Notes: generated by a model from the sequence alone, not told the origin. A stretch of DNA of 64,000 nt from an uncultured Alphaproteobacteria bacterium (GCA_944393695.1 CALYAY010000005.1:33717-97716), one strand, 5' to 3'. Counted from the stretch's first letter, positions 9,602 through 51,758 are shown. A program made the numbers and translations.

Positions 9602-9845
9602 AGTGGTAGTCCCGAACAGAGTTGAACTGTTTACTCAGCTACGTCAAAGCTACGTGATAACCGTTTCACTACGGGACTAGCGAAAACTTTTATTTATGTA
9701 GCGTATATTTTGGTTAAATGCAAGTCTTTTTTTCATATCCGGATAAATTTAGAGAATAATTTCCGTCTCTCCTTGTTTTTATTTATTGATATTTTATTTA
9801 TTTTTGTATAATATAGAAGAAAACAACCATGAAGGAGGATGAATA

Positions 9846-14982: not shown

Positions 14983-17742
14983 TTAAAACTTGTACTTGGC
15001 GTTAATCAAACCGGTGTGGTCTTCATAGTTATCGCGGAATTTGCCTTCATAACCAAGCGAAAGTTCGACGTTATCGTTAACTTCCGCAGTTACACCCGCG
15101 CCAAACTCCATACCGAAACGGTCAAGGGCTTCGCCGTCAACCGCATAAGCTGAACCGTTAGCCAAAGTTACAACCGAGTTAACGTCGTCGTTAAACAAGT
15201 CGTAAGTTGCGGCAATACGGGCTTCCGGTTTAATCGACATACCATTGTCAAGCTCAAAGGTTTTGTTGACTTTTGCGCCGATAACGCCGGTTAAGATATC
15301 GCTGTCGTTGCCGGAGACTTTCTGGTCGGCAGAATCGGTATAAGCGTCCTGTTTAATATGAACATAACGCAATCCAACTTCCGGCGTAAAGCCAAAGCCT
15401 TTAACCTGCATGTCATAACCGGTCATGGCCTGTAAGCCCAAGGTTTCAACATCATAGTCAGCCTTAACGCCAACCCCGGCAACACTCTTGTCTTCGGAAT
15501 AATCAGACCAGCCGTAGGTGGCAATACCGTTGATATACCAGTTGTTCGGCTTGTATTCACCGTAAACAATCGCGGTATGGGTATCAACATCCGTACTTCT
15601 CATAAAGCCGTCAATATCGGTGTTAGTATAAGCATAACCGGCACCGACTTTGACCGTCCGGCCGATAATTTTTTCAATACCCATGGCAACACCGGCAGAA
15701 TCCGCATCAAAACCTTTGGCTTTGGATGTGTCATCCAGTTCGGAATGATTATACATACCCTGAACCCAGACAGCTGCGTCCGGATTAGTATCACCGGAAG
15801 ACATGCCCTGTGAACCGGTCGAAATTGACCCACCGGTTAAACGGGTTGATACGGCACTAAATACCTGGTTGGCGGTTTCGGTCTGGGTTTTCTGAACCAT
15901 CGGCGCAACTTCAGGAGCTACGGCAGTCAAGGCATCTACATAAGCTTTTTGTGAAGCACTGTCCGTACTGTTAGACAATTGTGCCAGTTTTTCAGCAACT
16001 GCCGCGGCAACCGGGCTGCTGTCGGAAGCGCTTACGCTGTCCCAGGCTTCGGCTGTTGAGGCATTTGAAGTTGTGCCTCCGGCATCCGCAACAATATCGG
16101 AAGCTGTCGTGCCGTTGGCCGTTACCGTATATGTGCCATCACCGTTATCGGCAAAATCATAACGGGAGTTTGAAGTTAAATTGGCGAATTTTCCTTCAAT
16201 TTCAACCGGAGTATCTTCGTCATTAAACAATTTAAGCGTCAGAGGATCATCCCCCGCAGATAAAGCAGCGCTGTTTAAGCTCATATCAAGTGTGGTGCCG
16301 TTTTCGCTGATATTGACATAATTGGCATAGATTTTGCCGTAGGTGTCTTTGTCTGTAACGGTAAATTTCAAAGTCGAATTGTCTTTGAAATGAACACCTT
16401 CGCCAGCAACTTCCTTTTCACCGCCAGAGTGCAATTCATTTGCACCGATGTCAAGCGTAGCTCCTTCACCAACCACAACGCTGGAGGCACCACCGTCAAG
16501 TTCCTTATCATAGGCCAGCGTTCCTTTTTGAATTTCAAAAATATCTAAGCCGCCAATGGTACCGGTTACGGCTTCACTTAAAACGTGGCTGTCTTCAAAT
16601 ATCAGGCTGGCACCTTCAACATTACCGTCGATTTTGGCGTTTGAGTTCTGAAGATGAATTTTGCCGCGGTCATCACCATCAATATTGGCGCTTAAGGTGC
16701 CACCAATGTTAAACTTTGTATCATTATCAGCAACTCTGAGTGTGGCTTTCTGCGCCTGGTCCATATCTTCGGCTGAAACTTTGGCATATAAGGTTGAACC
16801 GGAAGCAATATTAATCTCTGCGCCGTTGAATATATTTATATTCCCGGCAGAAGATATTTCCGCCGAAGAGCCGCTGACATTTATCTTCCCGCCGCTTATA
16901 TTTATGTCGCCCTCATTTTTATAAGTGGTAGAGATTCGAGCTCCGTCTTTCAGGTTAATCTCTCCTCCGCTGATATTAATACTTCCGTTTGAGGCATGAT
17001 ATGGCGATAAATCCAATTCATCTGGATTTAATCCGGCGCTGATAAAATCTTCACGTGAAGCTTCATCTGGATATTTACCAGCTTTCTGATGAAATTCTTC
17101 TTCACTCATAACACTGGTACCGTCTTTTTTGTATAACCAGGAGCTATCATAACCACCGCGTTCAACTTTAGCCATTTCTCCGGTTAAATTAATGGTTCCG
17201 CCGGAAATGTTTATATCGCCGTTTTGACCTTCATGCAAAATACCGCCGTTGTGTATATCTTTTCCACTCTGCCAGATAGCATTTTCCGGTGCTTCTTCAT
17301 TCTCAGGTTTTATACCGCTATAATCCATTGTAATATTAGCATTTCCGCCAATGTTCATATCGGCGTTACCGGTTAATGTAATTTCGCCGCCGTCTTTAAC
17401 TGTAATATCGCCGCCTGTAATATTCATTTCTGCGGCTAATGTATTATATTGTTCATCTTTTCCACTCGCATCAATACTGGCACCGTTTGACAAGGTTATG
17501 AAACCCCCGGTTATAGAAATTTCTTTTTGGTTTGTCCCGTCCGATATTTGCTTAATATCGCCGTCTGCAACAACATTACCGCCAGAAATTGATATATTTC
17601 CTGTCGTCTGGTAATCTTTTTGGTTTTCCATAGTTATTTGCGTGTCCTGATTAATGTTTATATCATCAGAAACTTGTGCATAGGCATTATGGCTGCAAGT
17701 CAGCGCCACCAATGCCGTTGTAATTAAAAGTTTATTTTTCAT
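14983..17742 (-). CDS. Autotransporter adhesin (pertactin-like beta-helix passenger plus C-terminal beta-barrel translocator)
   Basis: Signal peptide MKNKLLITTALVALTCSHNAYAQ (ATG at 17742 with RBS agaggaag). Repeated GG.INISGG.I motifs. C-terminal ~270 aa has alternating beta-strand pattern ending ...INAKYKF. Confidence 0.8.
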   Translation of the reverse strand: MKNKLLITTALVALTCSHNAYAQVSDDININQDTQITMENQKDYQTTGNISISGGNVVADGDIKQISDGTNQKEISITGGFITLSNGASIDASGKDEQYNTLAAEMNITGGDITVKDGGEITLTGNADMNIGGNANITMDYSGIKPENEEAPENAIWQSGKDIHNGGILHEGQNGDINISGGTINLTGEMAKVERGGYDSSWLYKKDGTSVMSEEEFHQKAGKYPDEASREDFISAGLNPDELDLSPYHASNGSINISGGEINLKDGARISTTYKNEGDINISGGKINVSGSSAEISSAGNINIFNGAEINIASGSTLYAKVSAEDMDQAQKATLRVADNDTKFNIGGTLSANIDGDDRGKIHLQNSNAKIDGNVEGASLIFEDSHVLSEAVTGTIGGLDIFEIQKGTLAYDKELDGGASSVVVGEGATLDIGANELHSGGEKEVAGEGVHFKDNSTLKFTVTDKDTYGKIYANYVNISENGTTLDMSLNSAALSAGDDPLTLKLFNDEDTPVEIEGKFANLTSNSRYDFADNGDGTYTVTANGTTASDIVADAGGTTSNASTAEAWDSVSASDSSPVAAAVAEKLAQLSNSTDSASQKAYVDALTAVAPEVAPMVQKTQTETANQVFSAVSTRLTGGSISTGSQGMSSGDTNPDAAVWVQGMYNHSELDDTSKAKGFDADSAGVAMGIEKIIGRTVKVGAGYAYTNTDIDGFMRSTDVDTHTAIVYGEYKPNNWYINGIATYGWSDYSEDKSVAGVGVKADYDVETLGLQAMTGYDMQVKGFGFTPEVGLRYVHIKQDAYTDSADQKVSGNDSDILTGVIGAKVNKTFELDNGMSIKPEARIAATYDLFNDDVNSVVTLANGSAYAVDGEALDRFGMEFGAGVTAEVNDNVELSLGYEGKFRDNYEDHTGLINAKYKF

Positions 17743-18129
17743 ATGATTAAACTTCCTCTTCTTTAATTGCAATTAAAACAAAACCACCTGGTAAGAGGTG
17801 GTCGGAGAGTTCATCAATCATATTGTCTTAAATGATTCTCTTAGCCTTTAAAGTCAAAAAAACTTCTGAACATACGCCAAAAGCTCCCCGACCATAGAAA
17901 CTATGAATCGGGGATATATTTATTGCCTGCCATGATGAGTGGCTGACAATATTACGATGTTATATCCTAACACCGAAGACAATAAGAGCCGATGAAAGCT
18001 CCGCACCATAAAAGTGCTAAATACTGAGTATCCTCAATATCTGTTTTGAGAGTATTAGCTGTTGGTTCGCAAGTCAAGATAAAAATAAAATTTATAATAT
18101 TTCTAACCGGCGGATATTTATCCAAGATA

Positions 18130-20413: not shown

Positions 20414-21508
20414 CTATCCGCCGCAGAAGTCACAATAATCCGCACAATTCGTCGCACAACCGGTGGCATACCATAAGCCCGAGCATTCTTCATACTGGCA
20501 TATGGTGCAGCTCGGACAGGTGGTGTATTCTCCCAAGTTCGGGCAGGCCTTACAATTGTCATACATGGTGGTTGTTCCCGACAAACAAGTCGAGGCTCCG
20601 GCTTCTCCGCCCATGGAGCCGCAGTCCATATATCCATCACACGGGTTGGGTTTTATCTTGTAATGTTCCTGACCGTCACAACCAAGGCAGCTCTCACCAT
20701 CCTGGACATAGCCGTCGGGAATACTCGTATTGTCGTATCCGGCACAAGTGTTGCAACAGGTGCCGTATAAACTGTCATAAGAACATCTGTCATCGCTTAA
20801 TTGTTGGCCGGTGCCGCATTCATCGACATAACCGGGGTTCAATTCCTGACAGGCGCGCTCAGTGTCTTTTTCACAAGAGGCATATTTCCCGTCGCAGGCC
20901 TCTCCCACGCCGTAATACGGAACTTCACAAGTGACATAATTTGAGGGACAGGAAGAAACACATTTTTCAAAATAAGTGCTGTCATAGGGGCAGGTGTTGG
21001 AAGGTTCCTGACCTTCGGGACAGGAGGTTTGGGTATATCCTTCCTGGCGGCAGCGTTCAGCATTGTCCAAATCATAATCATCGCCGTCTCCGGGACCGCC
21101 GGGAGCCCCGTGTCCGTCATCATCGGCATTATTGCCGCTAAACTCATTTCCCGAACAGGCTGAGGTATCGGTTACAAAACAGGTGGCTGCGAGTTGGGGA
21201 AGAGGGGTGTTGTGAAACCCTCCCCAGCCCCTCCCTAAGTTTTTAGGGAGGGGATAGAATAGATAGTTCCCTAAGTCTTTAGGGAGGGAATAGGATAGAT
21301 AGTTCCCTGAGTTTTCAGGGAGAGGATAAAAGGCAGAAGACAACAACATTTCTTCCGGGTGAGAGGTGTGTGTATAAGGTGTGTGGACAAATGTAACCGC
21401 CCCCGGAGTGTTGAGAGATGTTAGATTATGAATTGAAGCCAAACTGCCGCCGGGCATAAGAAACAGCCCGGAAACCGACAGCATTAATGCTTTGGATAAT
21501 TTCATCAT
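20414..21508 (-). CDS. Cysteine-rich secreted protein, paralog of N-terminal half of 803..2788
   Basis: Signal peptide. Near-identical central block (CFVTDT..CSGNEFSGNNADDD...NAERC.QEGYTQTSCPEGQEP.NTCPYDS.YFEKCVSSCPSNYVTCEVPYYGVGE.CDGKYASCEKDTERAC.ELNP). Lacks the DUF1566 domain. Confidence 0.7.
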   Translation of the reverse strand: MMKLSKALMLSVSGLFLMPGGSLASIHNLTSLNTPGAVTFVHTPYTHTSHPEEMLLSSAFYPLPENSGNYLSYSLPKDLGNYLFYPLPKNLGRGWGGFHNTPLPQLAATCFVTDTSACSGNEFSGNNADDDGHGAPGGPGDGDDYDLDNAERCRQEGYTQTSCPEGQEPSNTCPYDSTYFEKCVSSCPSNYVTCEVPYYGVGEACDGKYASCEKDTERACQELNPGYVDECGTGQQLSDDRCSYDSLYGTCCNTCAGYDNTSIPDGYVQDGESCLGCDGQEHYKIKPNPCDGYMDCGSMGGEAGASTCLSGTTTMYDNCKACPNLGEYTTCPSCTICQYEECSGLWYATGCATNCADYCDFCGG

Positions 21509-26860: not shown

Positions 26861-27148
26861 ATGAACAAGCTGAAATTGATAAAAACCATTGTGGTGGTGC
26901 TGACTTTTTTGCTGGTGTTCGGCAGCCTTATGGCACTGACCGCGATTTACCGTCAGATTAAAAGCAGCAAACAACCGGAACCAACAGGAATATCCGACCT
27001 GAACGAACCGCAGGGAAGCCGCATTAACTCTATGTTAGAATATAAGGGCTATTTATATATTCTGGTAAAAGACGGCGGGGAAAGCGACCGGATTGTGGTG
27101 TTTGACACGCAAAAGGGACAGCCGGTCTCAAAAATCAAACTCAACTGA
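26861..27148 (+). CDS. Small membrane-anchored protein (95 aa)
   Basis: Single N-terminal TM segment (IVVVLTFLLVFGSLMALTAIY). Precedes the 27163 operon by 14 nt. Confidence 0.5.
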   Translation: MNKLKLIKTIVVVLTFLLVFGSLMALTAIYRQIKSSKQPEPTGISDLNEPQGSRINSMLEYKGYLYILVKDGGESDRIVVFDTQKGQPVSKIKLN

Positions 27149-27162
27149 AGAGGAAAACACTC

Positions 27163-28086
27163 ATGGCAGAAGAATTGGAAACAAAAGAAAATGACGACGA
27201 AGTTTTTGAAAAACTGCTGAATGAGTTTATTACAACGCAGCTGAAAGATGTGGACGACGTTGAAAAGAGTCAGCCGGAACCCCAACCACGGCAAGAAGAA
27301 GACGTGAGCATTTTTGCCAATCATGACGAGCAAAAAGCCGCCGATGACGAATGGGAAGGGGATGAGGAAGAGGAGGAAGAAGACAATCCGGAACTGGCCA
27401 TGCTGAAAAGCAATGAAAAAGCTTTATATAAAGCTTATGCCAATTTTCAGGAAGCTATCGACATGCTGGCAGAGGAAATCAAGGCCAAACCGGTAAAATT
27501 CAAAATTGTTCCGCAGTCTTTGTATCCGAACTATAAGCCCAGCACCGGTAAAATGATTGCCGAAGATATTTCGTCCGGCTGGGAGCTGCTGATTAAGGCC
27601 GAACCGGAAATGGTGGGAAGAATCTCGCCCAACGGCAGCGACGAAGAACTGCTGGCTTTTGCCGAAGAAAGCGAAAATGACGCCGTGCAATTTGCCTTAA
27701 TCTCATATGTGGAAATCCTGATTGAAATGGAAGGCTGCGAAATCGTTTATAAAGAGCGCCTGCTGAAATATGAGCAAAAACGCCTGGAAAGAGAAATTTA
27801 TGAAGAACATGAAAAAAGAATCAGGCGCATTAACCGCTATATTGAAGCCATCAAAGCCAAAAAATTTCCGGTGGATGCGGAAAAACTGGTGAAAAATTAT
27901 TTCAAAACCGCGGCCAAAGACGCCGAAGGGGCGTTTCAGGTGCTGACGCATAATCCGGCCATATTCTCACCGATAGAATTCAGCAAAATCAAGCCCCGGC
28001 TGTTCGGACTGCTGAAAGTCAAGCCCAGCGACGGCATTCGTATTAATCATTCCCTGGGAGAATTTTTGCGGAAATTAAAGGTTTAG
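27163..28086 (+). CDS. Acidic hypothetical protein (307 aa, Glu/Asp-rich, poly-E tract)
   Basis: EDVSIFANHDEQKAADDEWEGDEEEEEEDNPE. Predicted coiled-coil C-terminal half. RBS gaggaaaacactcATG. Confidence 0.6.
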   Translation: MAEELETKENDDEVFEKLLNEFITTQLKDVDDVEKSQPEPQPRQEEDVSIFANHDEQKAADDEWEGDEEEEEEDNPELAMLKSNEKALYKAYANFQEAIDMLAEEIKAKPVKFKIVPQSLYPNYKPSTGKMIAEDISSGWELLIKAEPEMVGRISPNGSDEELLAFAEESENDAVQFALISYVEILIEMEGCEIVYKERLLKYEQKRLEREIYEEHEKRIRRINRYIEAIKAKKFPVDAEKLVKNYFKTAAKDAEGAFQVLTHNPAIFSPIEFSKIKPRLFGLLKVKPSDGIRINHSLGEFLRKLKV

Positions 28087-28165: not shown

Positions 28166-29620
28166 ATGAATGAAAATAACGACGAAATGGTAATTGACGA
28201 AAACAGCAACCAGGATACACGGGAAAAAGAAGTGACTGTTGACGAGGCGCTGAAGGAAACAACCGTCAATGAAGAAATGAAGGAAACGACCGTCAACGAA
28301 GAGGCGAAAGAAACAACCTTTAATGAAAACGCCAAAGAGACAACTTTTAACGAACATCCGGCAGAAAACCGCGTTCCGGAAAATTCCGACGAGCAAGATA
28401 ATCTTGATGATGAAAAACAAGGCGATATCGAAAATCTGGAAGACGACAGGATTAATCCTCCGGACGAGGAAGGAAAAGGGCCGTTTGAAGAAGGCGATAT
28501 TATTGCTTATATGTATAAGAACTGGCTGATTGCCGGGATGAATTATGCCTGGGTATCAGCGGCAAAACGTATTAAAGCGGAGTCATATAAAAGGAAATAT
28601 CAAAAAAACCGCCGAAAAGCCGAGAAAAACAAGGATAAAGAAGTTAAACGCTATGATACGTATAAAATGCGGGATACTTATGAGAAAAAAGCAAATACCG
28701 AAATGGAGAAGAAGGAAGCTCAGATTATCGGGAACCGCAGCCTGATTAACCTGGCGGAAAAGGTGCGCGAGGGCAAATATGAAGAGGCCGGGCTGAGTCC
28801 GGAAATGCAGGATGTTGTCAAAAATATGCCCAAGAAGCAATTTGATGAAATGTTTGCCGAGAAAAACGTGAAAAAATATCAGAAAAACATTAATGACACC
28901 CTGATTTCGGCGAACCAGTTTGCTCATATGTACGCCCAGTTGTCCATGCTGGAAACCAAAGCCAAAGACGCCAATGACCCGATGTTTCAAAACGGAAACG
29001 ACCCGGCTTATCAGGCTCAGGTGAAGGAAGGCCTGATTCTTTATGCCAAAGCCATGGGCAGAGAAGCCGAGCAAGGCGGCGATACAAGAAAATTCAGCGG
29101 CAAGTTATTAGATCAGGCAAAGAATGCTCTGGATGTTACCCGTAAAAATATAGAAAAAGGGAATTTTAACGGTTATCACAAAAAACGCCGTTTCAGAAAA
29201 GACATTATCGGCGAACGCAAGGAAAACAAAGAGTTTGACAAACTGCTCAAAACGCTCAACGGGATTGATACCAACGAGCCTGCGGCCAATATGTTTGAAG
29301 CAATTATCCGCAGCCAGGCTTTTGACAAAGAAAAAGCGGCCCAATTGGTTGAAAATCAAAATCAGGAGCGAATTCTGGCGGCCAGACGCCAACGCAACGA
29401 CGACAGACGGCGGCGGCTGCAGGAAGCTAAAGACAGGATGGATCCGACCCGCAGGGCTCAGCGGGAAGCCAAAAACGCCGAAAGAGAGGCCAAGCGCCAG
29501 AAAAGAATTAAGAATCTGGAAAATCCGGATTATGTCATGACAGATTCCAAAGGCAATAAGAATCAAGAAGAGACCAATAAGTGGCGCCAGTTTTACAGAG
29601 ACCGGGGAATGATGAGGTAA
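28166..29620 (+). CDS. Highly charged hypothetical protein with tandem 11-aa repeats (KETTVNEEM x4)
   Basis: 484 aa, K/E/R-rich, C-terminal RRQR..RRRRLQEAKDR basic stretch. Translationally coupled (1-nt gap) to 29622. Confidence 0.6.
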   Translation: MNENNDEMVIDENSNQDTREKEVTVDEALKETTVNEEMKETTVNEEAKETTFNENAKETTFNEHPAENRVPENSDEQDNLDDEKQGDIENLEDDRINPPDEEGKGPFEEGDIIAYMYKNWLIAGMNYAWVSAAKRIKAESYKRKYQKNRRKAEKNKDKEVKRYDTYKMRDTYEKKANTEMEKKEAQIIGNRSLINLAEKVREGKYEEAGLSPEMQDVVKNMPKKQFDEMFAEKNVKKYQKNINDTLISANQFAHMYAQLSMLETKAKDANDPMFQNGNDPAYQAQVKEGLILYAKAMGREAEQGGDTRKFSGKLLDQAKNALDVTRKNIEKGNFNGYHKKRRFRKDIIGERKENKEFDKLLKTLNGIDTNEPAANMFEAIIRSQAFDKEKAAQLVENQNQERILAARRQRNDDRRRRLQEAKDRMDPTRRAQREAKNAEREAKRQKRIKNLENPDYVMTDSKGNKNQEETNKWRQFYRDRGMMR

Positions 29621-29621
29621 G

Positions 29622-30113
29622 ATGGCGAAATTCGGCAAAATTCTGAAGGCAATTATCGTGGGTTCGTTATGGACCTGCGTTTTGCTGTTTGCCGGCAACA
29701 AAATTACCCTGTTTTTCTGGAAATTTAATCTGCTCAGTGCTGCCGACTGGCAATTGATTGCCGGCTTTTGGAATCGGGGCGGCGTGATTAAAACCGCATC
29801 CGATTATCTGTTTGTATCCACCCTGTTTCTGATTCCGATTATATGGATTGGTGGCTGGAAAAGGCTGATGAAGGTGAAAATCGGGGCTTTGCTGCTGCGG
29901 CCTTTTGAGGCATACAGCGACTGGCAGGCAAAAAAATATGAAAACAATTCGCGAATCGTGTTGAAAAATATGGGAACAACTTCGGTAAAAGAAACACCGA
30001 AAGAAAAAATCAAATCCGACCTCAAAAAAATAGAAAAACAGATTGATAACAATAAAGAAACCGCTAAAATAAGAGAAAATATCGGCGAAAAAATCTCCCG
30101 TCTGAAAAAATAA
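29622..30113 (+). CDS. Two-TM membrane protein (163 aa), paralogous to N-terminus of 30172..31497
   Basis: TM1 - FWKFNLLSAADWQLIAGFW - TM2 (LFLIPIIWIGGW). Aligns with NWHFDIFQSAHWHHAWTLW - TM - LTFIPLWLSGW of the next protein. Confidence 0.6.
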   Translation: MAKFGKILKAIIVGSLWTCVLLFAGNKITLFFWKFNLLSAADWQLIAGFWNRGGVIKTASDYLFVSTLFLIPIIWIGGWKRLMKVKIGALLLRPFEAYSDWQAKKYENNSRIVLKNMGTTSVKETPKEKIKSDLKKIEKQIDNNKETAKIRENIGEKISRLKK

Positions 30114-30171
30114 ACAGTTATTAACCATATTTGTGTTATTATCGGAAAAAATTTATTAAGGATTAAATGAT

Positions 30172-31497
30172 TTGAAACCCTTGATTGTGTTAACCAGAAT
30201 TATGACCGTCGGTCTGATATGGAGTGTTTTCTTCATTGAAAGCATCAGGGTTATCATGCTTAAAAACTGGCATTTTGACATTTTTCAGTCGGCACACTGG
30301 CATCATGCCTGGACATTGTGGTTGTCGGGATGGGTTATCAATACCCCGAAGGAATGGGCGTTTGTTCTGATTATCCTGACTTTTATCCCGCTGTGGCTGT
30401 CGGGATGGGCGGGGCTGAGCCTGATTAAATGGGAAAGACTGCTCGCCAGAATTATGCGCTGGCCGCTGGAAATGCTGCGGCAATTTTTTTTCCGTCCGGT
30501 AAAAATTATTGCAAAGTCAACGACAAGCGGCCCGGTTAAAAAGAAAAAATCTTATAAAGAAGTGCGGCCGAGAAGCCTGCGGCTGCCTCTTGACGACAGA
30601 CCGGAACCGGTCAACCAGTCAAAGCTCATCAGTGCCAATTCGCGCACGGTTCCCCTGACACCGGCAGTGGCGGCGGCCGAAACACCCAGTCCGAGCGCCA
30701 TGGCGGCGGCTTCGACACTTAAGCCTCAGGCCGAACCCAAGAGTTTTGAACATTCGCTGTTTAAAATAGACAGCAGTGAGGATGAGGATTTTGATTTTAA
30801 CTTTGACGAATTTGATTTGGAGAAAGATTCCCAAGAGACAAAAAAAGCCGCTCCCGAGCCCGAGCCAAAACGTTCGCTGACGGCCGGAAACCGGCCCCCT
30901 GCCCCGGCAGCACGTAAAGAAAACAATTCACGCGAGGCCGTTAAAGGCAAAAAGAACGGGAACACGCCGAAAAACAATAGTCAACCGCGGGCAAACAGCG
31001 GAAATTCCATTCTGGATGTCATCCGGCAGCATAAATACGAAACAATCAACGGAGCCACTATCCGCAACACTCTGATTGATTTTATCGGCGTGGCCAAAAA
31101 TCAGATTATCCTCTGTCTGATTGACAGGGAACCGGGCGACTGGCTGGCAGACGAAGAGCGTTTTAACGATGAAGAGCCTTTATGGTTTTCAGAGAGCAGC
31201 CACCGGATTTCGCCGGTGCGGAAGGTGGATATTGCCCGAAAGGTTTTGGAAGAAAAAATTGCCGAAGCCGGTTTGAACTTTACGGTCAAGCCTTATGTTA
31301 TTATATCCATCGGCAATATCATCAATGCCGAGGATATGTTTGAAATATGGGACGGGCTGGGGGTTAACGTGGCCCGCATCGACCGGGGAACGCCCAAAGA
31401 AATAAAATTGTTTGCCAAGGCACTGGACGATGCCGAAGCCCCGATCAGCCGCGATGATTTTGAAAAAGTCAAAAAACTTATCAGAAACAATGCTTAA
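30172..31497 (+). CDS. Membrane protein (441 aa): N-terminal 2-TM module, Pro/Ala-rich acidic linker, C-terminal ~190-aa globular domain
   Basis: TTG start with aagga RBS. Architecture is reminiscent of T4CP-partner proteins such as DotM/IcmP, but this is unproven. Confidence 0.55.
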   Translation: MKPLIVLTRIMTVGLIWSVFFIESIRVIMLKNWHFDIFQSAHWHHAWTLWLSGWVINTPKEWAFVLIILTFIPLWLSGWAGLSLIKWERLLARIMRWPLEMLRQFFFRPVKIIAKSTTSGPVKKKKSYKEVRPRSLRLPLDDRPEPVNQSKLISANSRTVPLTPAVAAAETPSPSAMAAASTLKPQAEPKSFEHSLFKIDSSEDEDFDFNFDEFDLEKDSQETKKAAPEPEPKRSLTAGNRPPAPAARKENNSREAVKGKKNGNTPKNNSQPRANSGNSILDVIRQHKYETINGATIRNTLIDFIGVAKNQIILCLIDREPGDWLADEERFNDEEPLWFSESSHRISPVRKVDIARKVLEEKIAEAGLNFTVKPYVIISIGNIINAEDMFEIWDGLGVNVARIDRGTPKEIKLFAKALDDAEAPISRDDFEKVKKLIRNNA

Positions 31498-31518: not shown

Positions 31519-33726
31519 ATGAGCGAGAAAAGAGGCGAAGAATGGGAAGAATATGACAAGGCCGTGCAATGGATGGTGATTACGGTCATTATCTCGCTGG
31601 TTTTGACAATCTTTCTGGCGGTGATGGCTCTGCCGCTGGGATATCTGGTGGGCAGCGGCATATCAAAAGACAGCATCAGCACCGTATCGCGCTTTGTGCA
31701 GGCGGTGTTTGAAAATCCGTCATATCTGACCTCACGCTACTGGCACTGGTTTAATCAGCTGTCCAATTATATCGGTCCGTTTTCGTTCAGTCTGTGGCTG
31801 CCGATTTTGCCATTCATCACCCTGCCGCTCGGGCTGATTTTGGGAATGCTGACCAATCCGTATCGGTTTCAGTCAAATATTCACGGTTCGGCACGACTGG
31901 CCACGGAAAAAGACATCAAGAAAATGCCTTTGCTGGGTTTTGACGGATTTTGCCAGGTGGTGGGAAAATTTAACGGCAAACTGCTAATGCTCAAGGAAAC
32001 GCTGGCAACCCTGTGCTGCGCGCCTCCGGGAACCGGTAAAACGGCGGGGGTGGTTATTCCGACGATTTTTAACTCCCGCGGACTGAGTATTATCGTAAAC
32101 GACCCCAAGCCCGAATTGTGTTACAGCACGACGGGCGCCCGGGCAAAGGAAGGCCCGGTGTTTGTCATTAACTGGGGGGCGGAAGACAACCCGGCGGAGG
32201 GAATCTATTATCCCAGCTGGAACCCGCTGTCGCCGAATGCATTGCCCATGCCGGGGCCGGACCGGGACATGTATGTTGATTCCATGTGCAATATTCTGGT
32301 GGAAGATCCGAAAGGCGGCGCCGACCCGCACTGGTCAAAAACCGGCCGTTCGGCTTTGACCGGATTTATTCACTTTGTTTCGTTCAAATGCGAAAAAGCC
32401 CGGGCCAATGATTATTTTATCGGCCGTATTTATGAGGGAAAGCTTGATGACGAAGACAAGCGCGTGCTGGAAAGCTATTATCTGGAAATGCACGACCCGA
32501 TGGCGGCCAGAGCCATTCAGGATTTGCGCAACGGGACGCTGACCATTGATAATTATCTGCCAATCGGCAGCTGGGCTCTGCTTCCGGAAAAATGGATCGG
32601 GCATGAACCTTGTCTGGCAATGATTTTGGAGTGGATTACCGAAGCGCAGATTAAACAATCGGAAGAAATCAAACGCCGGCTGGACGAAGGCGACCAGATG
32701 GCGGCAATGGCCGACCCGATGCGCAATATGCTGGAAGAGGCTATCGAGGAAGCCCGAAAATTCGGCTATTCGCAACGCTGCATCGTGGAATTGAGCCAGT
32801 TGAGCGCCATGCCGGACAAAGAAAGAGGTTCGGTTCTGTCAACCGGTTTGTCGGGTATCGGTATTTTCAAAAACTCGGCGGTGGTTTCCCGAACCAGTTT
32901 TTCTGATTTGCAGTTTAAGGATTTGCGCGGCATGAAAGACCCGGTGACGGGAGAATGGAAACCGATTTCGGTTTATCTGTCGGTTAACCAGGTTGATGCC
33001 CGCGCCCTGGGTATCATCAGCGGAACATTTATTGAGCTGATGTCTTCTTACCTGATTGCCAATCCGCCCAAGTTTAAAAATAAAACCGACGGGGTGATGG
33101 GACCTTTTCCGGCATTGTTCGTGCTGGACGAGTTTCCGCAGATGCCTAAGCTGAAAGCCATTATCGACGGACCGGCGGTGGGCCGCGGACAAAAGGTTTC
33201 ATACCTGCTTATCGGACAAGATCTGGGGCAAATCTCGGGAAAATACGGAAAAGATGATTTGGAAACCGTGATTTCAACGACGGCCTGTAAGGTTATTTTG
33301 TCGCAGAACAACGAAGTGACCGCCCAGCGCTTTTCCAAAATGATCGGCAATAAGACCGTGCAGACAACCTCTTTTTCAAAACAAGAGGGACTGAGCAAAG
33401 GAAGCAATCCTTTTTCGAAAAACGTTTCTTATCAGCTGCAGGGGACTTCGGTTATCAGTACGACCCAGCTGCTGAGCCTGCCGATGCTGAAGCAGGTTGT
33501 ACTGATGCAGGGCTCAATCGACCGACCGATTATGGCAGACTCGCCCCGGTGGTATCTGGATAAAAAGATGAAGGCCCTGGCTGCGCTGCCGCCGGCACCC
33601 AATGTTCCCGACTGGATTGTGGCACAGCGTGAGGATATTAACGAGGATATGCTCTCCAAGCTGGGAATCGAGTATTCGCCCGATGAAGACGATTTTGAAC
33701 CGGACGAAGACGAAAACGATGCCTAA
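31519..33726 (+). CDS. Type IV secretion coupling protein (VirD4/TraG/DotL family ATPase)
   Basis: Two N-terminal TM helices. Walker A CAPPGTGKTAGVVIPTIF (compare VirD4 APTRSGKGVGLVIP). Walker B region FVLDEFPQMPKL...LLIGQDLGQI. Acidic C-terminal tail EDDFEPDEDENDA. Confidence 0.8.
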   Translation: MSEKRGEEWEEYDKAVQWMVITVIISLVLTIFLAVMALPLGYLVGSGISKDSISTVSRFVQAVFENPSYLTSRYWHWFNQLSNYIGPFSFSLWLPILPFITLPLGLILGMLTNPYRFQSNIHGSARLATEKDIKKMPLLGFDGFCQVVGKFNGKLLMLKETLATLCCAPPGTGKTAGVVIPTIFNSRGLSIIVNDPKPELCYSTTGARAKEGPVFVINWGAEDNPAEGIYYPSWNPLSPNALPMPGPDRDMYVDSMCNILVEDPKGGADPHWSKTGRSALTGFIHFVSFKCEKARANDYFIGRIYEGKLDDEDKRVLESYYLEMHDPMAARAIQDLRNGTLTIDNYLPIGSWALLPEKWIGHEPCLAMILEWITEAQIKQSEEIKRRLDEGDQMAAMADPMRNMLEEAIEEARKFGYSQRCIVELSQLSAMPDKERGSVLSTGLSGIGIFKNSAVVSRTSFSDLQFKDLRGMKDPVTGEWKPISVYLSVNQVDARALGIISGTFIELMSSYLIANPPKFKNKTDGVMGPFPALFVLDEFPQMPKLKAIIDGPAVGRGQKVSYLLIGQDLGQISGKYGKDDLETVISTTACKVILSQNNEVTAQRFSKMIGNKTVQTTSFSKQEGLSKGSNPFSKNVSYQLQGTSVISTTQLLSLPMLKQVVLMQGSIDRPIMADSPRWYLDKKMKALAALPPAPNVPDWIVAQREDINEDMLSKLGIEYSPDEDDFEPDEDENDA

Positions 33727-33837: not shown

Positions 33838-33993
33838 ATGGAAAAACAAGAAACATCCAATAAACAAAAAAAACGCAGCCAGATCCGTATTGAAAAAGAA
33901 GCGGCCGCCCTGCAGCGCAACCTGATTAAACGCAAAAAACAGGTGGCGGAACGGGCCAGACTGAAAGCGGAAAAGCAAAAAGAATCGAACTAA
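33838..33993 (+). CDS. Candidate small basic protein (51 aa, K/R-rich, helical)
   Basis: aaggga RBS 7 nt upstream of ATG. Below the ORF-track length cutoff. Sits between the T4CP terminator and murA. Confidence 0.3.
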   Translation: MEKQETSNKQKKRSQIRIEKEAAALQRNLIKRKKQVAERARLKAEKQKESN

Positions 33994-34007: not shown

Positions 34008-35300
34008 ATGGATAAAATAAAAATTACCGGCGGAAAGGTACTTAACGGGGAAATTTATATCAGCGGGGCCAAAAATGCCGCCCTGCCGCTTATTTGCGCC
34101 AGCCTGCTGACCGATGAAACAGTAACGCTGACCAATATGCCGATTTTATCAGACATCCGGGCTATGAACGCCTTGCTGGTGTCTATCGGAACGCAGATTG
34201 ACGAGTTTGACGACTTTGTTGACGGGCATCCGACCAAAACTTATTCTTACCGGACAAAGGAATTCAGCAGCCTGATTGCCCCGTATGATTATGTCCGGAA
34301 AATGCGGGCATCCTATTACGTCTTAGGGCCGATTTTGGCGCGGGAAGGACATGTTGAGCTTTCATTGCCGGGAGGGTGTGCCATCGGCGCCCGGCCAATG
34401 GATATTCATCTGGCGGCATTGGAACAGATGGGAGCCAGAATCGAGATTAAAAACGGCTATGTGCATGCCGATGTCGACGGGCGGCTGAAAGGTGCACATA
34501 TTATCTTTCGTTTTGCCTCAGTCGGGGCTACCTGCAACATCTTAATGGCGGCAGCTTTGGCAGAAGGAACCACAATTATTGAAAACGCTGCCAAAGAACC
34601 TGAAATCGGCGATCTGGTGGATTTGCTCAATGACATGGGGGCCAAAATCAGCGGTAAAGATACATCCGTTTTGACGATTGAAGGAGTAGACAAGCTGCAC
34701 GGCGCCCGGCACAAGGTGATTGCCGACCGTATTGAGGCCGGTTCGTATGCAGTGGCAGCGGCCATTACCCGGGGAAGAATCGAGCTAATCAACGCGCGGG
34801 CGGCGAATCTGCAAACGCCTCTGAATATTTTGCGCAATGCCGGTGTTTTGATTCAGGAAAAGGAAAACAGCATTGTGGTTGACGCCGTGGGGCGGACACT
34901 GACCGGACAAGATATTATGACCGACGTATATCCCGGTTTTCCGACTGATTTGCAGGCGCAATTCCTGGCACTGATGTTAACTGCAGAAGGCGCGGCCATG
35001 GTGACGGAAACAATTTTTGAAAACCGCTTTATGCATATTCCGGAACTGCTGCGCATGGGGGCAAATATTAACGTGCACGGACATGCTTCGGCTATTGTCC
35101 GGGGAGTCAGCAAACTTTACGGCGCACCGGTGATGGCTACGGATTTGAGAGCATCATTTGCCTTGATTTTGGCAGGTCTGGCGGCTGAAGGCGAAACCAT
35201 CGTCTCACGTGTTTATCACCTTGACCGCGGTTATGAGCGTCTGGAAGAAAAACTGCGCGGCGTGGGTGCAGATATTGAACGAATTAAAGAAACAGATTAA
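34008..35300 (+). CDS. murA: UDP-N-acetylglucosamine 1-carboxyvinyltransferase
   Basis: Full-length MurA. Active-site Cys in the LPGGCAIGARP motif. Confidence 0.95.
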   Translation: MDKIKITGGKVLNGEIYISGAKNAALPLICASLLTDETVTLTNMPILSDIRAMNALLVSIGTQIDEFDDFVDGHPTKTYSYRTKEFSSLIAPYDYVRKMRASYYVLGPILAREGHVELSLPGGCAIGARPMDIHLAALEQMGARIEIKNGYVHADVDGRLKGAHIIFRFASVGATCNILMAAALAEGTTIIENAAKEPEIGDLVDLLNDMGAKISGKDTSVLTIEGVDKLHGARHKVIADRIEAGSYAVAAAITRGRIELINARAANLQTPLNILRNAGVLIQEKENSIVVDAVGRTLTGQDIMTDVYPGFPTDLQAQFLALMLTAEGAAMVTETIFENRFMHIPELLRMGANINVHGHASAIVRGVSKLYGAPVMATDLRASFALILAGLAAEGETIVSRVYHLDRGYERLEEKLRGVGADIERIKETD

Positions 35301-39984: not shown

Positions 39985-41118
39985 TCAGCCAAAGAGCTGC
40001 AAGACACTCTGGGCAGCCTGAGAAGCCAGGCTCAGAGAGTTAATGGCCAGCTGCTGTCTGGTCTGAAGGGCCAGCATGTTGGCGGATTCTTCGTTCATAT
40101 CGGCCAGAATCAGGTTGTCGGAACCTTCTTCCAGAACGTTAATCAGATTTTCGGTAAAGTCCTGGCGGGTCTGGACGATAGAATAATTGTTACCAAAGAC
40201 AGAAGCCATATCGCGCAGTTCGTTGATCGCGCCTTCAATGTCTTCAATTACGGCGTCAACGGCTTCATTGGTGTTCCAGTCGGTGGCCGGACTTAATCCC
40301 AGACCATTGGAAGACGCGTCATCGCCTTTGATTTCAAGATAAGATGAACGGTCTTCGTTAAAGACAACTTTCAGGTCGTCATTACGCAACAGGTTGACAC
40401 CTTTATAGGAAGCATCGGAAGCCAGCTGGTCTATCTGTACCAAGATGTCGTTATACTGCTGCATGGAGCTGTCGCGCAGGGTGTTGTCCAGCTTTCCGGA
40501 AAGGCTGATGCCCAGTTGTCCGGCGCCTTCCAGACTGATGGCCTGGTCAGCCAGCTTGGTGTCTTCCTTCACATTTATGATAAGTTTACCTTCATCCGCA
40601 CCGGTTCCGGCTTCGATGGTGAAACCAGAATCGTCATAAGCGGTCTGGTTTGCCCCGGTTGTCAGAGCCGTTACCAAATCATCCAAATCAGAAGTATCGG
40701 CAAAACCTGTGGCAGTCAGTGTTACATCACCAATCGTTAAAGTGACATCGGTGGTTTTTCCCGCATCCAATTTGTTTTCAAAAGTTCCGTTGCTTTTGGC
40801 AACAGCTTTGGCCGAGGTATCACGGGCGGTGTTGGCAACGGCTTTGGCCTGTTGCACAAAAGCGGTGATTGACTCAATGCCTTCATTGGCGGCTTTGATG
40901 GTCTGGATGCCCTGCCCCATGCTGTCAAGCAAATCTTCCAAATCACCGGCACGGTTGGTCAGGCTCTGGGAAGTGTAATAAGACATCGGGTTGTCAATGG
41001 CCGAGTTTACCTTTTTGCCGGTGGACAGGCGATCCTGCGTTCTGTCCATTAAAGACTGCGTACTCTGTAGAGAAAGCAGATTTGAACGCATGCTGGCGGT
41101 TAATGAAATGTCTGACAT
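39985..41118 (-). CDS. fliC: Flagellin
   Basis: Conserved flagellin N-terminus (MSDISLTASMRSNLLSLQSTQ...) and C-terminus (LALQTRQQLAINSLSLASQAAQSVLQLF). ATG at 41118 with ggaga RBS. Confidence 0.85.
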   Translation of the reverse strand: MSDISLTASMRSNLLSLQSTQSLMDRTQDRLSTGKKVNSAIDNPMSYYTSQSLTNRAGDLEDLLDSMGQGIQTIKAANEGIESITAFVQQAKAVANTARDTSAKAVAKSNGTFENKLDAGKTTDVTLTIGDVTLTATGFADTSDLDDLVTALTTGANQTAYDDSGFTIEAGTGADEGKLIINVKEDTKLADQAISLEGAGQLGISLSGKLDNTLRDSSMQQYNDILVQIDQLASDASYKGVNLLRNDDLKVVFNEDRSSYLEIKGDDASSNGLGLSPATDWNTNEAVDAVIEDIEGAINELRDMASVFGNNYSIVQTRQDFTENLINVLEEGSDNLILADMNEESANMLALQTRQQLAINSLSLASQAAQSVLQLFG

Positions 41119-41369
41119 GGTTAATCTCCAAATTAACGATATTTTTTCAGCCATCAGGGCTTTATGGTTTAATATTAGTAATTTATTAACTTTTAGCAAG
41201 CGGTGATTGTTCCTTGTGCATAACTATGTTTTTTTTCTGAGGGAAAGGCCGCATTTTGAATATTGACGAACGCGCCGATTGCGGTTAAATTAAATAGGTT
41301 GGCGGCCCGGTTTGTTTCCGGCGGTCATTTGCATGATGAATAAAAAAAGTTATTACAGGGGAGAGAACC

Positions 41370-45806: not shown

Positions 45807-47432
45807 TTATACATTCCGCAGACGATAAAGCCCGGCTTTATTGTTTGTTCTTTCAAGTTTTTTTTCGCCCAGGAATTCGAATTTCGGCGCATTGTCGCCA
45901 AGTTTTTCATAAATGCCGCCGTCGGTAAGGATTTCTCCGTCATAGGTATGGTCAAATAAATCCTGAATATAGTTTTTTTTGTCAGGCAATTCATTTCCCT
46001 GCCCTTCAACCAGGCAAAGACGTTCGGCAACAATCAGGTTTTCGTCGGAAAGTTCATCGATGTAGGTGTCGGCATCTTTCAAAAATTCCTGTCCGAAAAT
46101 CAATGCCTTCCCTACATCGGAAAACTGAATGCCGATAAATTCGGGCAAAGAGGTTTCTTGGGGAATGCCGCTGTATTTTCCGGTGAGGTTTTGAATTATA
46201 TTATTCATGGATGAACGGATTTCCTGCTCGTATTCTTCACTATTTTTGGCGGTTCCGTTGTAAAGGACGCGGATTAAGATATTTAACAATACGCTGATAT
46301 GCACCGGGGCGGTATTTTTTTCTTCTTTTTCGGGAAGAACTGCCGCTTTCGGACTTTCGTAGCGGTGAGAAATGTTATTCAGCACGCTCCAACGGTAAAA
46401 GGCCAGACGGACAAAGTTTTTATCCAGCGTTTTTTCGGAAAGCAGCTGAGACATGGCGGAAGCTCCTACACCCACCAAGAACACGGCTTCCTTAGTGTCT
46501 TTATAGGTGCGTTTGGCATCATAAAATGCAGCAACATCAACATGATCGGAGCCGTCGATTATGGAAAAAGCTTCATATAAAAGCGAATTGGCCTGGGCAA
46601 TGTTCAGACGACTGTGCAAAGCCAGCTGCATGCAGCCGCCGTATACCAACAGGCGTAACCCCAGACGGTTAAAATCATCCGACAAGGACAGAGTGCTGTC
46701 CAAACAGGCAATCAGGTTGCTTAAATAGTTAACGATATAACGTTTATATTCCAATGAGGCTTCGGGAAAAGACGGAACCACCCCTTCCTGATAATCATCA
46801 TTAAGATTATAGAGGTTAATCAGTTTTTCAGCTTTATTAAAATAACGACGTTCGGCCTGAGGCGTAATCTTCGGCCGGCGGCGGAAACCGAAAACCTGCC
46901 ACGGAATTTTTTTCAAAATCAACGGGGTGGAGACGATGATGAACAAACTGAAGAAAAACAGAAACAATAAGGTTTTGGTGGCTTCTTCATTGAAAAAGTC
47001 TTCAAAAAGCGGGGCGCTCAGATTTACGATAATATTGGCAAACAAAAGGCTGAACAAAATAATCAGTATCAATTTGGCCAAGGCTATTGCGATGTTGTGC
47101 GGGGAATTGTAGCTTTCGTCAATCGCATTAAAAATATTATTGCCGCCGGCAGAAAAATTTTCACCGCTGGTGAAAAAATTGTTATCTTTTTCAGAATGCT
47201 GTCTGGCGGCTTCCTTTTTTTTGTTGGGCAGGCTGACGTATTCTATTGTTTCCTGATAATTGTTGTCCAGGACATCAAATTTTTCGCGGATGAGTTTGAC
47301 GGCAATATTGTCGTGTTCTTTTTCCCGGGTATATTTTATGGCTGCATCCCGCTGATCCGCAGGAAAGCGCTCTTCCAGCTTCCAGCCCGTGCCTCTGTCG
47401 GTATAAACTTCATAGTGTGTGATATCAACCAT
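45807..47432 (-). CDS. Hypothetical membrane protein (541 aa)
   Basis: Central cluster of TM helices (IIILFSLLFANIIVNL..., LFLFFFSLFIIVSTPLIL). Confidence 0.5.
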   Translation of the reverse strand: MVDITHYEVYTDRGTGWKLEERFPADQRDAAIKYTREKEHDNIAVKLIREKFDVLDNNYQETIEYVSLPNKKKEAARQHSEKDNNFFTSGENFSAGGNNIFNAIDESYNSPHNIAIALAKLILIILFSLLFANIIVNLSAPLFEDFFNEEATKTLLFLFFFSLFIIVSTPLILKKIPWQVFGFRRRPKITPQAERRYFNKAEKLINLYNLNDDYQEGVVPSFPEASLEYKRYIVNYLSNLIACLDSTLSLSDDFNRLGLRLLVYGGCMQLALHSRLNIAQANSLLYEAFSIIDGSDHVDVAAFYDAKRTYKDTKEAVFLVGVGASAMSQLLSEKTLDKNFVRLAFYRWSVLNNISHRYESPKAAVLPEKEEKNTAPVHISVLLNILIRVLYNGTAKNSEEYEQEIRSSMNNIIQNLTGKYSGIPQETSLPEFIGIQFSDVGKALIFGQEFLKDADTYIDELSDENLIVAERLCLVEGQGNELPDKKNYIQDLFDHTYDGEILTDGGIYEKLGDNAPKFEFLGEKKLERTNNKAGLYRLRNV

Positions 47433-51537: not shown

Positions 51538-51758
51538 GGCATAGAGAAGAGCTGTCCGGTGCGTAGTTCCCGCAAGTCTTCCGAGCCAACATTATCTTTA
51601 AGGGAACTGTCACTGAGCAAATCGTGGTTTGTTTATATGGTGCCCACCTATTTGACAGCGGTTCGTGTGGAATGCACTAGATACGGCTGTGACGGCCCTT
51701 CTCGCCAGTTTTTAATTTTAACATGACGAAAATCCCCGGTTCGGGATTTTCGTGTTTT
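51538..51758 (+). ncRNA. ssrS: Candidate 6S RNA (SsrS) with intrinsic terminator
   Basis: Immediately downstream of zapA (conserved zapA-ssrS synteny). 5' gagaagagc pairs with 3' gcccttctc (closing stem). Terminator hairpin aaaatccc-cggttc-gggatttt plus T-run at 51729..51758. Confidence 0.5.

Follow-up and report, generated by a model that had tools for sequence, protein, structure and literature searches.

The subject of this study is a pair of tandem genes that encode tryptophan-rich proteins with two transmembrane (2-TM) segments and that precede the gene of a type IV coupling protein (T4CP) in the genome of an uncultured Alphaproteobacteria bacterium. The stretch of DNA that was analysed, hereafter called the window, comprises 64,000 nucleotides (nt) (GCA_944393695.1, CALYAY010000005.1:33717-97716), and the coordinates below refer to it except where a related locus is named. 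The first gene of the pair (29622..30113, plus strand, ATG start, called as an open reading frame (ORF)) encodes a protein of 163 amino acids (aa), the short protein, which consists of a W-rich 2-TM hairpin, a juxtamembrane helix and a conserved cytoplasmic tail. The second gene (30172..31497, plus strand, ORF call, TTG start) encodes the long protein of 441 aa, whose MKP start is backed by 80 aligned orthologues. The coupling ATPase follows on the same strand (31519..33726, 735 aa, VirD4/TraG-type, with an N-terminal 2-TM domain of its own), and the 21 nt between the stop of the long gene and the T4CP start place a membrane-anchored protein directly 5' of the T4CP. Both the positions of the two ORFs and their tandem arrangement 5' of the T4CP are as an initial annotation of the sequence had stated them. 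Here, we report that the short protein is paralogous to the first ~107 residues of the long protein, and that a distinct and highly conserved chromosomal clade of VirD4-type ATPases in uncultured gut Alphaproteobacteria constantly has the long protein as its upstream neighbour.

The initial annotation had seen a clear alignment between the 163-aa protein and the start of the 441-aa protein, and this is borne out by BLASTP, by shuffling tests, by profile alignment and by structure prediction. BLASTP aligns the two proteins without gaps over 87 residues (7-93), residue 7 on residue 7, with 28% identity (E=1e-9). The Smith-Waterman score of the pair, 114, compares with 36 +/- 7.3 in shuffles that preserve the TM/loop/TM/tail layout (z=10.7, with 0 of 2000 shuffles as high) and with 33 +/- 6 in full shuffles; the similarity is thus well above that of random TM segments. 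When an alignment of 40 short sequences was compared with one of 57 long sequences by hhalign, the probability of homology was 98.9% (E=1.9e-17, 103 columns), and the N-terminal modules taken alone gave 99.0% (E=2.8e-18). In a control comparison of either module with the two-TM N-terminus of the T4CP family the hhalign probability was 0.2%, and generic TM composition therefore cannot explain the match between short and long. The same figure led us to reject the candidate homology of the 2-TM module with the TM domain of the T4CP itself. The two families have in common a series of invariant or near-invariant positions (W17, W33, F35, W43, W50, G53, W75 and G78), and their per-position conservation is correlated in register (rho=0.27, p=0.006), whereas rho was at most 0.02 in eight shifted registers.

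The models obtained with AlphaFold2 (AF2) have matching helix boundaries. In the short protein helices are predicted at residues 2-33, 40-51, 59-84, 87-108 and 126-162, with a predicted local distance difference test score (pLDDT) of ~95 over residues 11-80; in the N-terminal module of the long protein they span residues 2-33, 40-51, 59-83 and 87-114, and the first three lie within one residue of their counterparts in the short protein. A positively charged segment follows TM2 in both sequences, as befits an N-in/C-in orientation, and we infer that both are N-in/C-in two-TM proteins. Two details of the alignment require revision. The homology had been put at ~130 aa; it is genuine but shorter, extending over about residues 1-107. 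The IP..GW match noted at the end of TM2 is obtained only with a one-residue shift, the significant alignment being ungapped, because the short protein of the window has its proline at position 72 and most members of its family have it at position 73.

In the short protein the shared module (aa 1-108, 29622..29945, plus strand; delimited by hhalign against the long family) comprises TM1, a periplasmic aromatic loop helix, TM2 and an amphipathic helix. A family-specific cytoplasmic tail follows (aa 109-163, 29946..30110, plus strand), which contains the motif (R)IVLKN(M)G and, at its C-terminus, a helix. A profile search recovered 49 clusters of this family, all of 89-190 aa and all unnamed, the few labelled entries being hypothetical proteins of Alphaproteobacteria metagenome-assembled genomes (MAGs). 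Within the tail N116 and R151 are invariant in 48 divergent sequences and K115, G118, I150 and K157 nearly so, and hhalign of the families found no counterpart of the tail in the long protein. The conservation of both the module and this private tail in 48 divergent sequences argues against a view of the short protein as a remnant in decay, and purifying selection on both the short and the long gene is supported. A Foldseek search of the short model against the PDB gave no match (E > 2). In one SIG57 MAG (L040:2548-8483) the segment that reaches from p307, a gene located farther upstream, to the short gene is doubled; both p307-like ORFs are 282 aa long and the N-termini of the short proteins are identical. 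Either the segment was recently duplicated in tandem or the doubling is an artefact of the assembly.

The long protein begins with the 2-TM module and its juxtamembrane helix (aa 1-114, 30172..30513, plus strand), as delimited by BLASTP, shuffles, hhalign and AF2. The remainder had been described as a large cytoplasmic domain. There is indeed an additional cytoplasmic part, but it is not a single domain: AF2, run with a 57-sequence alignment, predicts a disordered linker of ~165 residues (aa 115-278, 30514..31005, plus strand; pLDDT <50 throughout) and then a C-terminal domain of ~160 residues (aa 279-441, 31006..31494, plus strand; hereafter the C-domain). The linker carries a basic motif, KKKKSYKE(I/V)RPR, at aa ~123-133, and family conservation marks out an acidic-aromatic motif, FxHSLF..D...DFDF.FD.FD, at aa ~192-214 (nt 30745-30813, plus strand). 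Its invariant residues are S127, Y128, K129, R132, P133, F192, H194, L196, F197 and F209. The family numbers more than 900 homologues, none of them named and none with a Pfam domain, and it is a previously undescribed family of membrane proteins. Sequence searches of solved structures returned no match for it, and tblastn with the long protein found no match in 72,556 plasmids (E <= 0.01) and none in 50,697 phages.

The topology predicted for the C-domain is a-b-b-b-[loop]-a-b-a-b (core pLDDT 78-94), with core helices at residues 280-286 and 348-365 and core strands at residues 290-297, 300-308, 311-318 and 371-378. Nearly all of the PDB entries that Foldseek retrieved with it are PD-(D/E)xK enzymes, with probabilities up to 1.00 and weak E-values (best E=3.4e-3); these include Cdn1, BstEII, the R2 restriction-like endonuclease domain, Nt.BspD6I, Bax1, Card1 and the arenavirus cap-snatching endonucleases. 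A search of BFVD gave an equally weak PD-(D/E)xK signal. The Pfam NERD model (PF08378) matches residues 286-379 below its gathering score (13.8 versus 22.1 bits, E=0.089), and this sub-threshold match recurs in 34 of 57 members of the long family (E <= 1; best E=0.002). AF2, Foldseek and Pfam together point to a degenerate NERD/PD-(D/E)xK fold. The superfamily to which it would belong has an a-b-b-b-a-b core and includes restriction and nicking endonucleases, CARF nucleases, the R2 endonuclease domain and the cap-snatching endonucleases. The C-domain has the same core; unlike a NERD domain, it scores below the gathering threshold, has no (D/E)xK and contains an extra loop of ~30 residues. Strand b3, where the catalytic (D/E)xK was looked for and not found, reads (I/L)xLCLxD(K/R)E; the aspartate of b2, D303, is conserved only in the TM-linked proteins and not across the domain family. 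A further motif of the domain is IINAEDM. The loop, GDWLADEERFNDEEPLWFSESSHRISPVRK (aa 322-351, nt 31135-31224, plus strand), is invariant in the family alignment, and an invariant acidic and aromatic loop of this kind is not, to our knowledge, a described feature of NERD domains.

The C-domain and its loop also occur outside the long family. In an exhaustive HMMER search (421 matches at E <= 1e-3) they were found in proteins of a different build: AAA+ ATPases that carry them N-terminally (P0263, whose gene adjoins a WYL regulator, and P0269), giant TPR-[domain]-Roc-COR-TIR proteins that enclose them (P0208, P0223), and proteins of 800-1800 aa without a Pfam domain; the list runs P0263, P0269, P0208, P0223, P0251, P0264 and locus L089:3616-5205. 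The consensus of the loop across these architectures is ADEERF(N/A)DE-PL(W/Y)F-ES. The C-domain appears to be an undescribed mobile domain, one that AAA+ and Roc-COR-TIR proteins of the conflict type also use. In our reading its nuclease fold is degenerate and now functions either in binding or in a remodelled form of catalysis, and the domain is not a standard nuclease; the acidic loop may contribute to a remodelled active site.

The neighbour of the long protein is assigned to the VirD4/TraG type by Pfam, with matches to T4SS-DNA_transf (PF02534, 1.5e-57, 195.9 bits against a cut-off of 20.1), TraG-D_C (PF12696, 3.4e-23, 82.4 bits) and TrwB_AAD_bind (PF10412, 2.3e-16, 60.1 bits). Its Walker A (G171-T-G-K-T175) and Walker B (D537-E538) motifs are intact and are invariant in 18 sequences that include outgroups. 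Its scores against the NCBIfam equivalog models all fall far below their cut-offs, which indicates a divergent clade, and its closest annotated relatives are VirD4 proteins of 33-37% identity. Those of the alphaproteobacterial megaplasmids of Erythrobacter and Sphingosinicella are 33-36% identical over 78-89% of the T4CP of the window. In those two megaplasmids virD4 comes after virB8-virB9-virB10-virB11 and no 2-TM/NERD-like gene is present, whereas the T4CP of the window stands apart from any VirB gene within the window and is preceded by short and long. Sequence searches of solved structures with the T4CP, both as a single sequence and as a profile, gave no match.

Within its clade this ATPase is exceptionally well conserved. 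The median identity to the window across species is 82% for the whole T4CP and 85% for its cytoplasmic part, against 74% for RpoH and 61% for RluD, and in all 69 genomes that carry both proteins (69/69) the T4CP is more conserved than RpoH; conservation at such a level is unusual for a VirD4-family protein. For the long protein the corresponding medians are 69% (C-domain), 61% (N-terminal module) and 36% (linker), for the short N-terminal module 40%, and for p307 and p484, two products of upstream genes, 46% and 28%.

A scan of one genome per GTDB species revealed 232 genomes that encode a relative of the long protein. Synteny was followed in the best 80 of these 232 species genomes, all from uncultured gut Alphaproteobacteria or Proteobacteria, which include CAG:495, Ca. 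Scatocola (Rhodospirillales according to NCBI) and 'Azospirillum sp.' UMGS; this gut clade we take to be the GTDB order RF32. The literature on secretion systems in the lineage RF32 / CAG-495 yielded nothing relevant. Wherever the contig reaches, the gene order is rluD(-) / DUF6476 - p307 - p484 slot - short - long - T4CP. The linkage of short, long and T4CP is found in 80 of 80 species loci, with short directly 5' of long, and the upstream synteny is retained in about 70 species. The locus is part of the chromosomal core and is vertically inherited; no integrase or repeat boundary was seen around it, and nothing places it on a mobile element (no oriT search was made). The related loci form a set of 95 stretches of about +/-8 kb each where contigs allow, or ~1% of each genome. 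Searches by tblastn for VirB4, B8, B9, B10 and B11 found none in the 64-kb window, in the 83 clade loci or in the 12 outgroup loci.

Beyond the gut clade, the long gene lies directly 5' of a T4CP in five outgroup lineages (L090, L091/92, L095, L096/97 and L098), whose GC content is lower and whose flanking genes differ. In the four lineages with a complete T4CP sequence it is 57-61% identical to that of the window. In L091/92 and L095 the order is RHH_4 - long - T4CP. The L086/87 and L093 loci and L088 contain a long homologue without an adjacent T4CP, and the long locus of L094 ends at a contig edge. In L086:2624-7523 and L093:3180-8329 the long homologue is preceded by a conserved gene set, which encodes a regulator of the HTH_3 type, a lipoprotein of ~420 aa and two small proteins; the C-terminus of the lipoprotein is secretin-like by eye, and within this set Pfam matches the regulator only. 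Six-frame scans with hidden Markov models (HMMs) detected no separate short gene, p307, p484 or DUF6476 in the outgroup loci, where the short-family HMM matches only the N-terminus of the long gene. The gut clade alone has short, p307 and p484. Since the long architecture exists in outgroups that have no short gene, parsimony makes the pair of long and T4CP ancestral and places a partial duplication in the ancestor of the gut clade. On this comparison the short gene is probably not the ancestor of long but a partial copy, taken from the 5' part of long and specific to the clade, and by parsimony it arose at about the time that p307 and p484 joined upstream.

These upstream genes run in the same direction as the pair. 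The p484 gene (28166..29620, plus strand, ORF call) encodes a charged, fast-evolving protein specific to the gut clade, and its stop lies 1 nt ahead of the short start. Its slot is filled in 71 of 71 loci by an ORF of 432-728 aa that ends -3 to +12 nt from the start of short; no family match for p484 was found in Pfam, NCBIfam, PADLOC or PHROGs. In 31 of the 71 loci the protein of this slot ends in G-R plus 0-2 residues, as against ~4% of other ORFs; the copy in the window ends RDRGMMR. Farther upstream, p307 (27163..28086, plus strand, ORF call) is conserved, likewise specific to the gut clade and found in 72 loci; it has no Pfam, NCBIfam or PDB relatives. The first gene of the run on the plus strand (26861..27148) encodes a small membrane protein of the DUF6476 family (Pfam PF20082, E 1.6e-7); its stop is 14 nt ahead of the p307 start and it is syntenic in 71 loci, and it is an uncertain member of the functional unit. 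No further paralogy was found among DUF6476, p307, p484, short and long. The anti-phage models of PADLOC gave no match (E <= 0.1) for the six operon proteins, and PHROGs and NCBIfam gave none for the accessory proteins. Promoter and terminator scans returned counts at the level of the shuffled background. Once the RpoH+RluD distance is removed, the rates of evolution co-vary most visibly between p307 and T4CP (0.65), between the short tail and p307 (0.63) and between the long N-terminal module and the T4CP membrane domain (0.57); the values for DUF6476 are the lowest (0.24-0.38).

Downstream of the T4CP a two-gene cassette occurs in part of the loci. In the outgroups X (204-340 aa) and then Y (125-154 aa) come after the T4CP, and within the gut clade X and Y lie 3' of the T4CP in 31 of 77 loci (all within L014-L072), always both together; they are missing from the window and from its closest relatives (L001-L013). 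Representative positions are L025:12059-13112, L091:11992-13073, L096:3826-5110 and L098:11557-13026. The C-terminal domain of X is conserved and has no relative in Pfam or the PDB; the pattern D-V-H-x-K-x-P...G...N...H in X is HNH-like by eye, a resemblance to which Pfam and the PDB lend no support. Y is SUKH/SMI1-like below threshold in three of three members (best E=2.4e-4). The pair may encode an effector and its immunity protein. A C-terminal 'GR' signal common to X and to the p484-slot proteins was considered and dropped, as it is enriched in the p484 family alone and the X proteins of the gut clade end ...GKIYHD. The window has a Lys/Arg-rich ORF of 51 aa (33838-33993, plus strand) between the T4CP and murA, the position that X and Y occupy elsewhere, and this ORF is annotated as a gene in three near-identical contigs (L081-L083).

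The run is flanked upstream, on the opposite strand, by ruvB, ruvA, rpoH and rluD, and downstream by murA, Fe-S assembly genes and succinyl-CoA ligase. Elsewhere in the window there are a 6S RNA (51546-51702, plus strand; Rfam RF00013, 69.2 bits), a tRNA-Val(GAC) (9604-9678, minus strand), a 929-aa autotransporter (14983-17772, minus strand; PF03797, E 5.7e-53) and a flagellin gene (39985-41199, minus strand), whose equivalent in L081 matches Flagellin_N/C. The last two indicate a motile Gram-negative organism with surface-exposed proteins. Four ORFs of 661, 537, 541 and 364 aa (803-2788, minus strand; 12336-13949, plus strand; 45807-47432, minus strand; 20414-21508, minus strand) have no Pfam match at E <= 1e-5.

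As a rule T4CPs form complexes with auxiliary subunits, the 'D4Aux' proteins (PMC12857230), and a membrane protein encoded directly 5' of a T4CP has a counterpart in DotM (IcmP) of the Legionella Dot/Icm system. DotM is membrane-anchored, is encoded directly 5' of dotL, stabilises DotL and recruits substrates via a charged surface (PMC5802825). Like the long protein, it is an inner membrane protein in which an N-terminal TM region precedes a cytoplasmic domain. The two have no sequence similarity (no Pfam or NCBIfam match), and a DotM-like fold for the cytoplasmic domain of long was ruled out by the AF2 model, which is alpha/beta, and by Foldseek, which retrieved nucleases and not DotM. The cytoplasmic domain of DotM is all-alpha with basic patches; that of long is alpha/beta, PD-(D/E)xK-like and equipped with an acidic invariant loop. 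Their partners differ as well, since DotM works with a DotL-type protein and long is found beside a T4CP of the VirD4/TraG type, with no Dot/Icm or VirB genes nearby. We know of no truncated tandem paralogue of DotM. A second likeness is to SmdA of Staphylococcus aureus, a TM-anchored partial NERD protein that is essential, is not a nuclease, and interacts and self-associates via its TM segment (PMC9040797). By its description SmdA resembles long in that it is anchored in the membrane by its N-terminus and has a NERD-like domain in the cytoplasm from which several conserved NERD residues are missing; it differs in its single TM helix, its occurrence in Firmicutes, its role in cell division and the absence of any link to a T4CP.

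On balance, we lean towards the view that the long and short proteins are membrane auxiliary subunits of a T4CP complex, DotM-like in function and not homologous to DotM. The history of the locus would then have begun with a tandem duplication of the 5' part of long, which gave rise to short; the linker and the nuclease-fold domain would have been lost from this copy and a tail of its own would have evolved. Both proteins would insert N-in/C-in in the inner membrane, with the aromatic loop at the periplasmic interface, and the conserved stripe of aromatic and glycine residues on TM1 and TM2, with W17, F21, F64, W75 and G78, would pack short, long and the membrane domain of the T4CP hexamer together into a membrane-embedded coupling complex. 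Long would hold its degenerate NERD-fold domain beside the ATPase ring on a flexible tether of ~165 residues, and the invariant acidic loop would bind a substrate or cofactor and would not be the site of a canonical nuclease. Short would fill equivalent membrane positions without bringing a NERD-like domain; it is plausibly a partner within the same membrane complex, and its tail would link p307 and p484 to that complex. The X-Y cassette has a bearing on this view: a patchy pair with a SUKH-type protein is what is expected of an effector/immunity cassette, and it leans towards, without proving, a role of the T4CP as a secretion component.

Several observations weigh against such a complex. No VirB homologue was found by tblastn in the window or in the 95 related loci, and the gene lists of the sampled loci show no other family of the type IV secretion system (T4SS). 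The long homologues that stand without an adjacent T4CP (L086/87, L093 and L088) suggest that the function of long may not depend strictly on a T4CP. The presence of the same C-domain and loop in AAA+ and TPR-Roc-COR-TIR proteins would fit a generic ligand better than lineage-specific secretion signals. Rate co-variation separates partners from non-partners poorly, every pair being positive and significant. Finally, the direction of the duplication is an argument from parsimony: the neighbour-joining tree of the 2-TM module is saturated (distances >2, some undefined) and does not recover the short clade as monophyletic.

The lack of VirB homologues in these loci is one ground for a different proposal, that of a housekeeping inner-membrane motor that is independent of any T4SS: a VirD4-type ATPase would have been co-opted together with long (and short) for a core cell process without a secretion channel, such as the handling of DNA at the membrane or during division, or an envelope process. 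We regard this as rather unlikely, although it would account for the strong conservation of the ATPase, which exceeds that of RpoH in 69/69 genomes and is far above that of RluD (82% versus 74% and 61%), for its fixed position beside rluD-rpoH-ruvAB across 80 species, for the lack of a nearby VirB homologue in ~95 loci from at least six lineages and for the mere 33-37% identity of the nearest plasmid VirD4s. SmdA, a TM-anchored degenerate NERD protein and yet an essential division factor, would be a precedent, and genes for wall synthesis or division do lie nearby: murA in the window (34008-35300), ftsA, a Mur ligase and murI in L094 (200-4577), and AnmK (L091:13447-14580) and ZapA (L098:13283-13588) near the module. 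These envelope genes could, however, be neighbours by coincidence, and the characterised VirD4-family T4CPs all act with a T4SS channel (PMC12857230). The T4SS genes of some genomes are scattered, so that the ~1% of each genome inspected need not contain them, and the patchy X-Y pair downstream resembles an effector/immunity pair more than a housekeeping part. To a fuller version of the same proposal we give an equally low weight: the VirD4-type ATPase and its 2-TM/degenerate-NERD partner would form a vertically inherited, T4SS-independent machine in the core biology of an order-level gut clade, and the loop would bind a universal ligand.

The initial annotation had imagined the history of the pair in reverse, with one copy acquiring a large cytoplasmic domain; short would then be ancestral and would now act as a decoy or competitor for a membrane site. 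We consider this doubtful. Some fusion of the C-domain did take place, as its mobility among unrelated architectures testifies, and short retains all of the conserved residues of the module. Yet the long form occurs in at least seven contexts outside the clade that have no short gene, and short is found only as alphaproteobacterial proteins of 89-190 aa, always beside long in the loci examined, so that the proposed acquisition is probably the wrong way round. The decoy role, for its part, fits poorly with the invariant N116 and R151 of the tail.

Slightly more doubtful still is a derivation of the locus from a domesticated DNA-mobilisation (Dtr) module, in which long would be tethered to the membrane and act with the T4CP as a MOBC-like relaxase or nickase, a ribbon-helix-helix (RHH) accessory would lie upstream in some lineages, and short would be a by-product of duplication. 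MOBC relaxases such as TraX of pAD1 and MobC of CloDF13 belong to the PD-(D/E)xK superfamily, T4CP genes are often beside that of the relaxase, and relaxosome accessories are usually RHH proteins (PMC12857230). The nuclease fold of the C-domain and the order RHH_4 - long - T4CP of L091/92 and L095 recall these features. MOBC relaxases, however, are soluble proteins borne on plasmids or integrative conjugative elements and have a functional restriction-endonuclease site, whereas long is an integral membrane protein of the chromosomal core, with no ExK on b3 and a D303 that is not universally conserved. We know of no relaxase that is an integral membrane protein. The failure of long to match any of the 72,556 plasmids or 50,697 phages, its vertical inheritance at a locus where no integrase or repeat boundary was seen, and the conservation of the short paralogue itself all speak against such an origin. 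Finally, a chance resemblance of two hydrophobic Trp-rich membrane segments, which an identity of just 28% between two compositionally biased regions might have suggested, is refuted by the z-score of 10.7, the hhalign probability of 99% against 0.2% for the control, the in-register invariants and the matching helix boundaries, and we dismiss it.

Seen as auxiliaries of the coupling ATPase, the two proteins are of interest more for their wider context than for the duplication itself. T4CPs decide which substrates enter type IV secretion and conjugation, and their auxiliaries are known in detail for few systems, of which Dot/Icm is the best studied. With its more than 900 proteins the long family is new, large and without annotation; it supplies a distinct T4CP clade with membrane partners, to which a truncated paralogue has been added in one clade. 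The T4CP itself is chromosomal and syntenic, and in uncultured gut Alphaproteobacteria, over species that number in the hundreds, it is better conserved than sigma-32. If these genomes also encode a T4SS, the operon would be a natural system for the study of substrate selection by membrane auxiliaries and a tethered, inactivated nuclease fold. If they do not, this ATPase would be the first VirD4-family motor to work outside type IV secretion.

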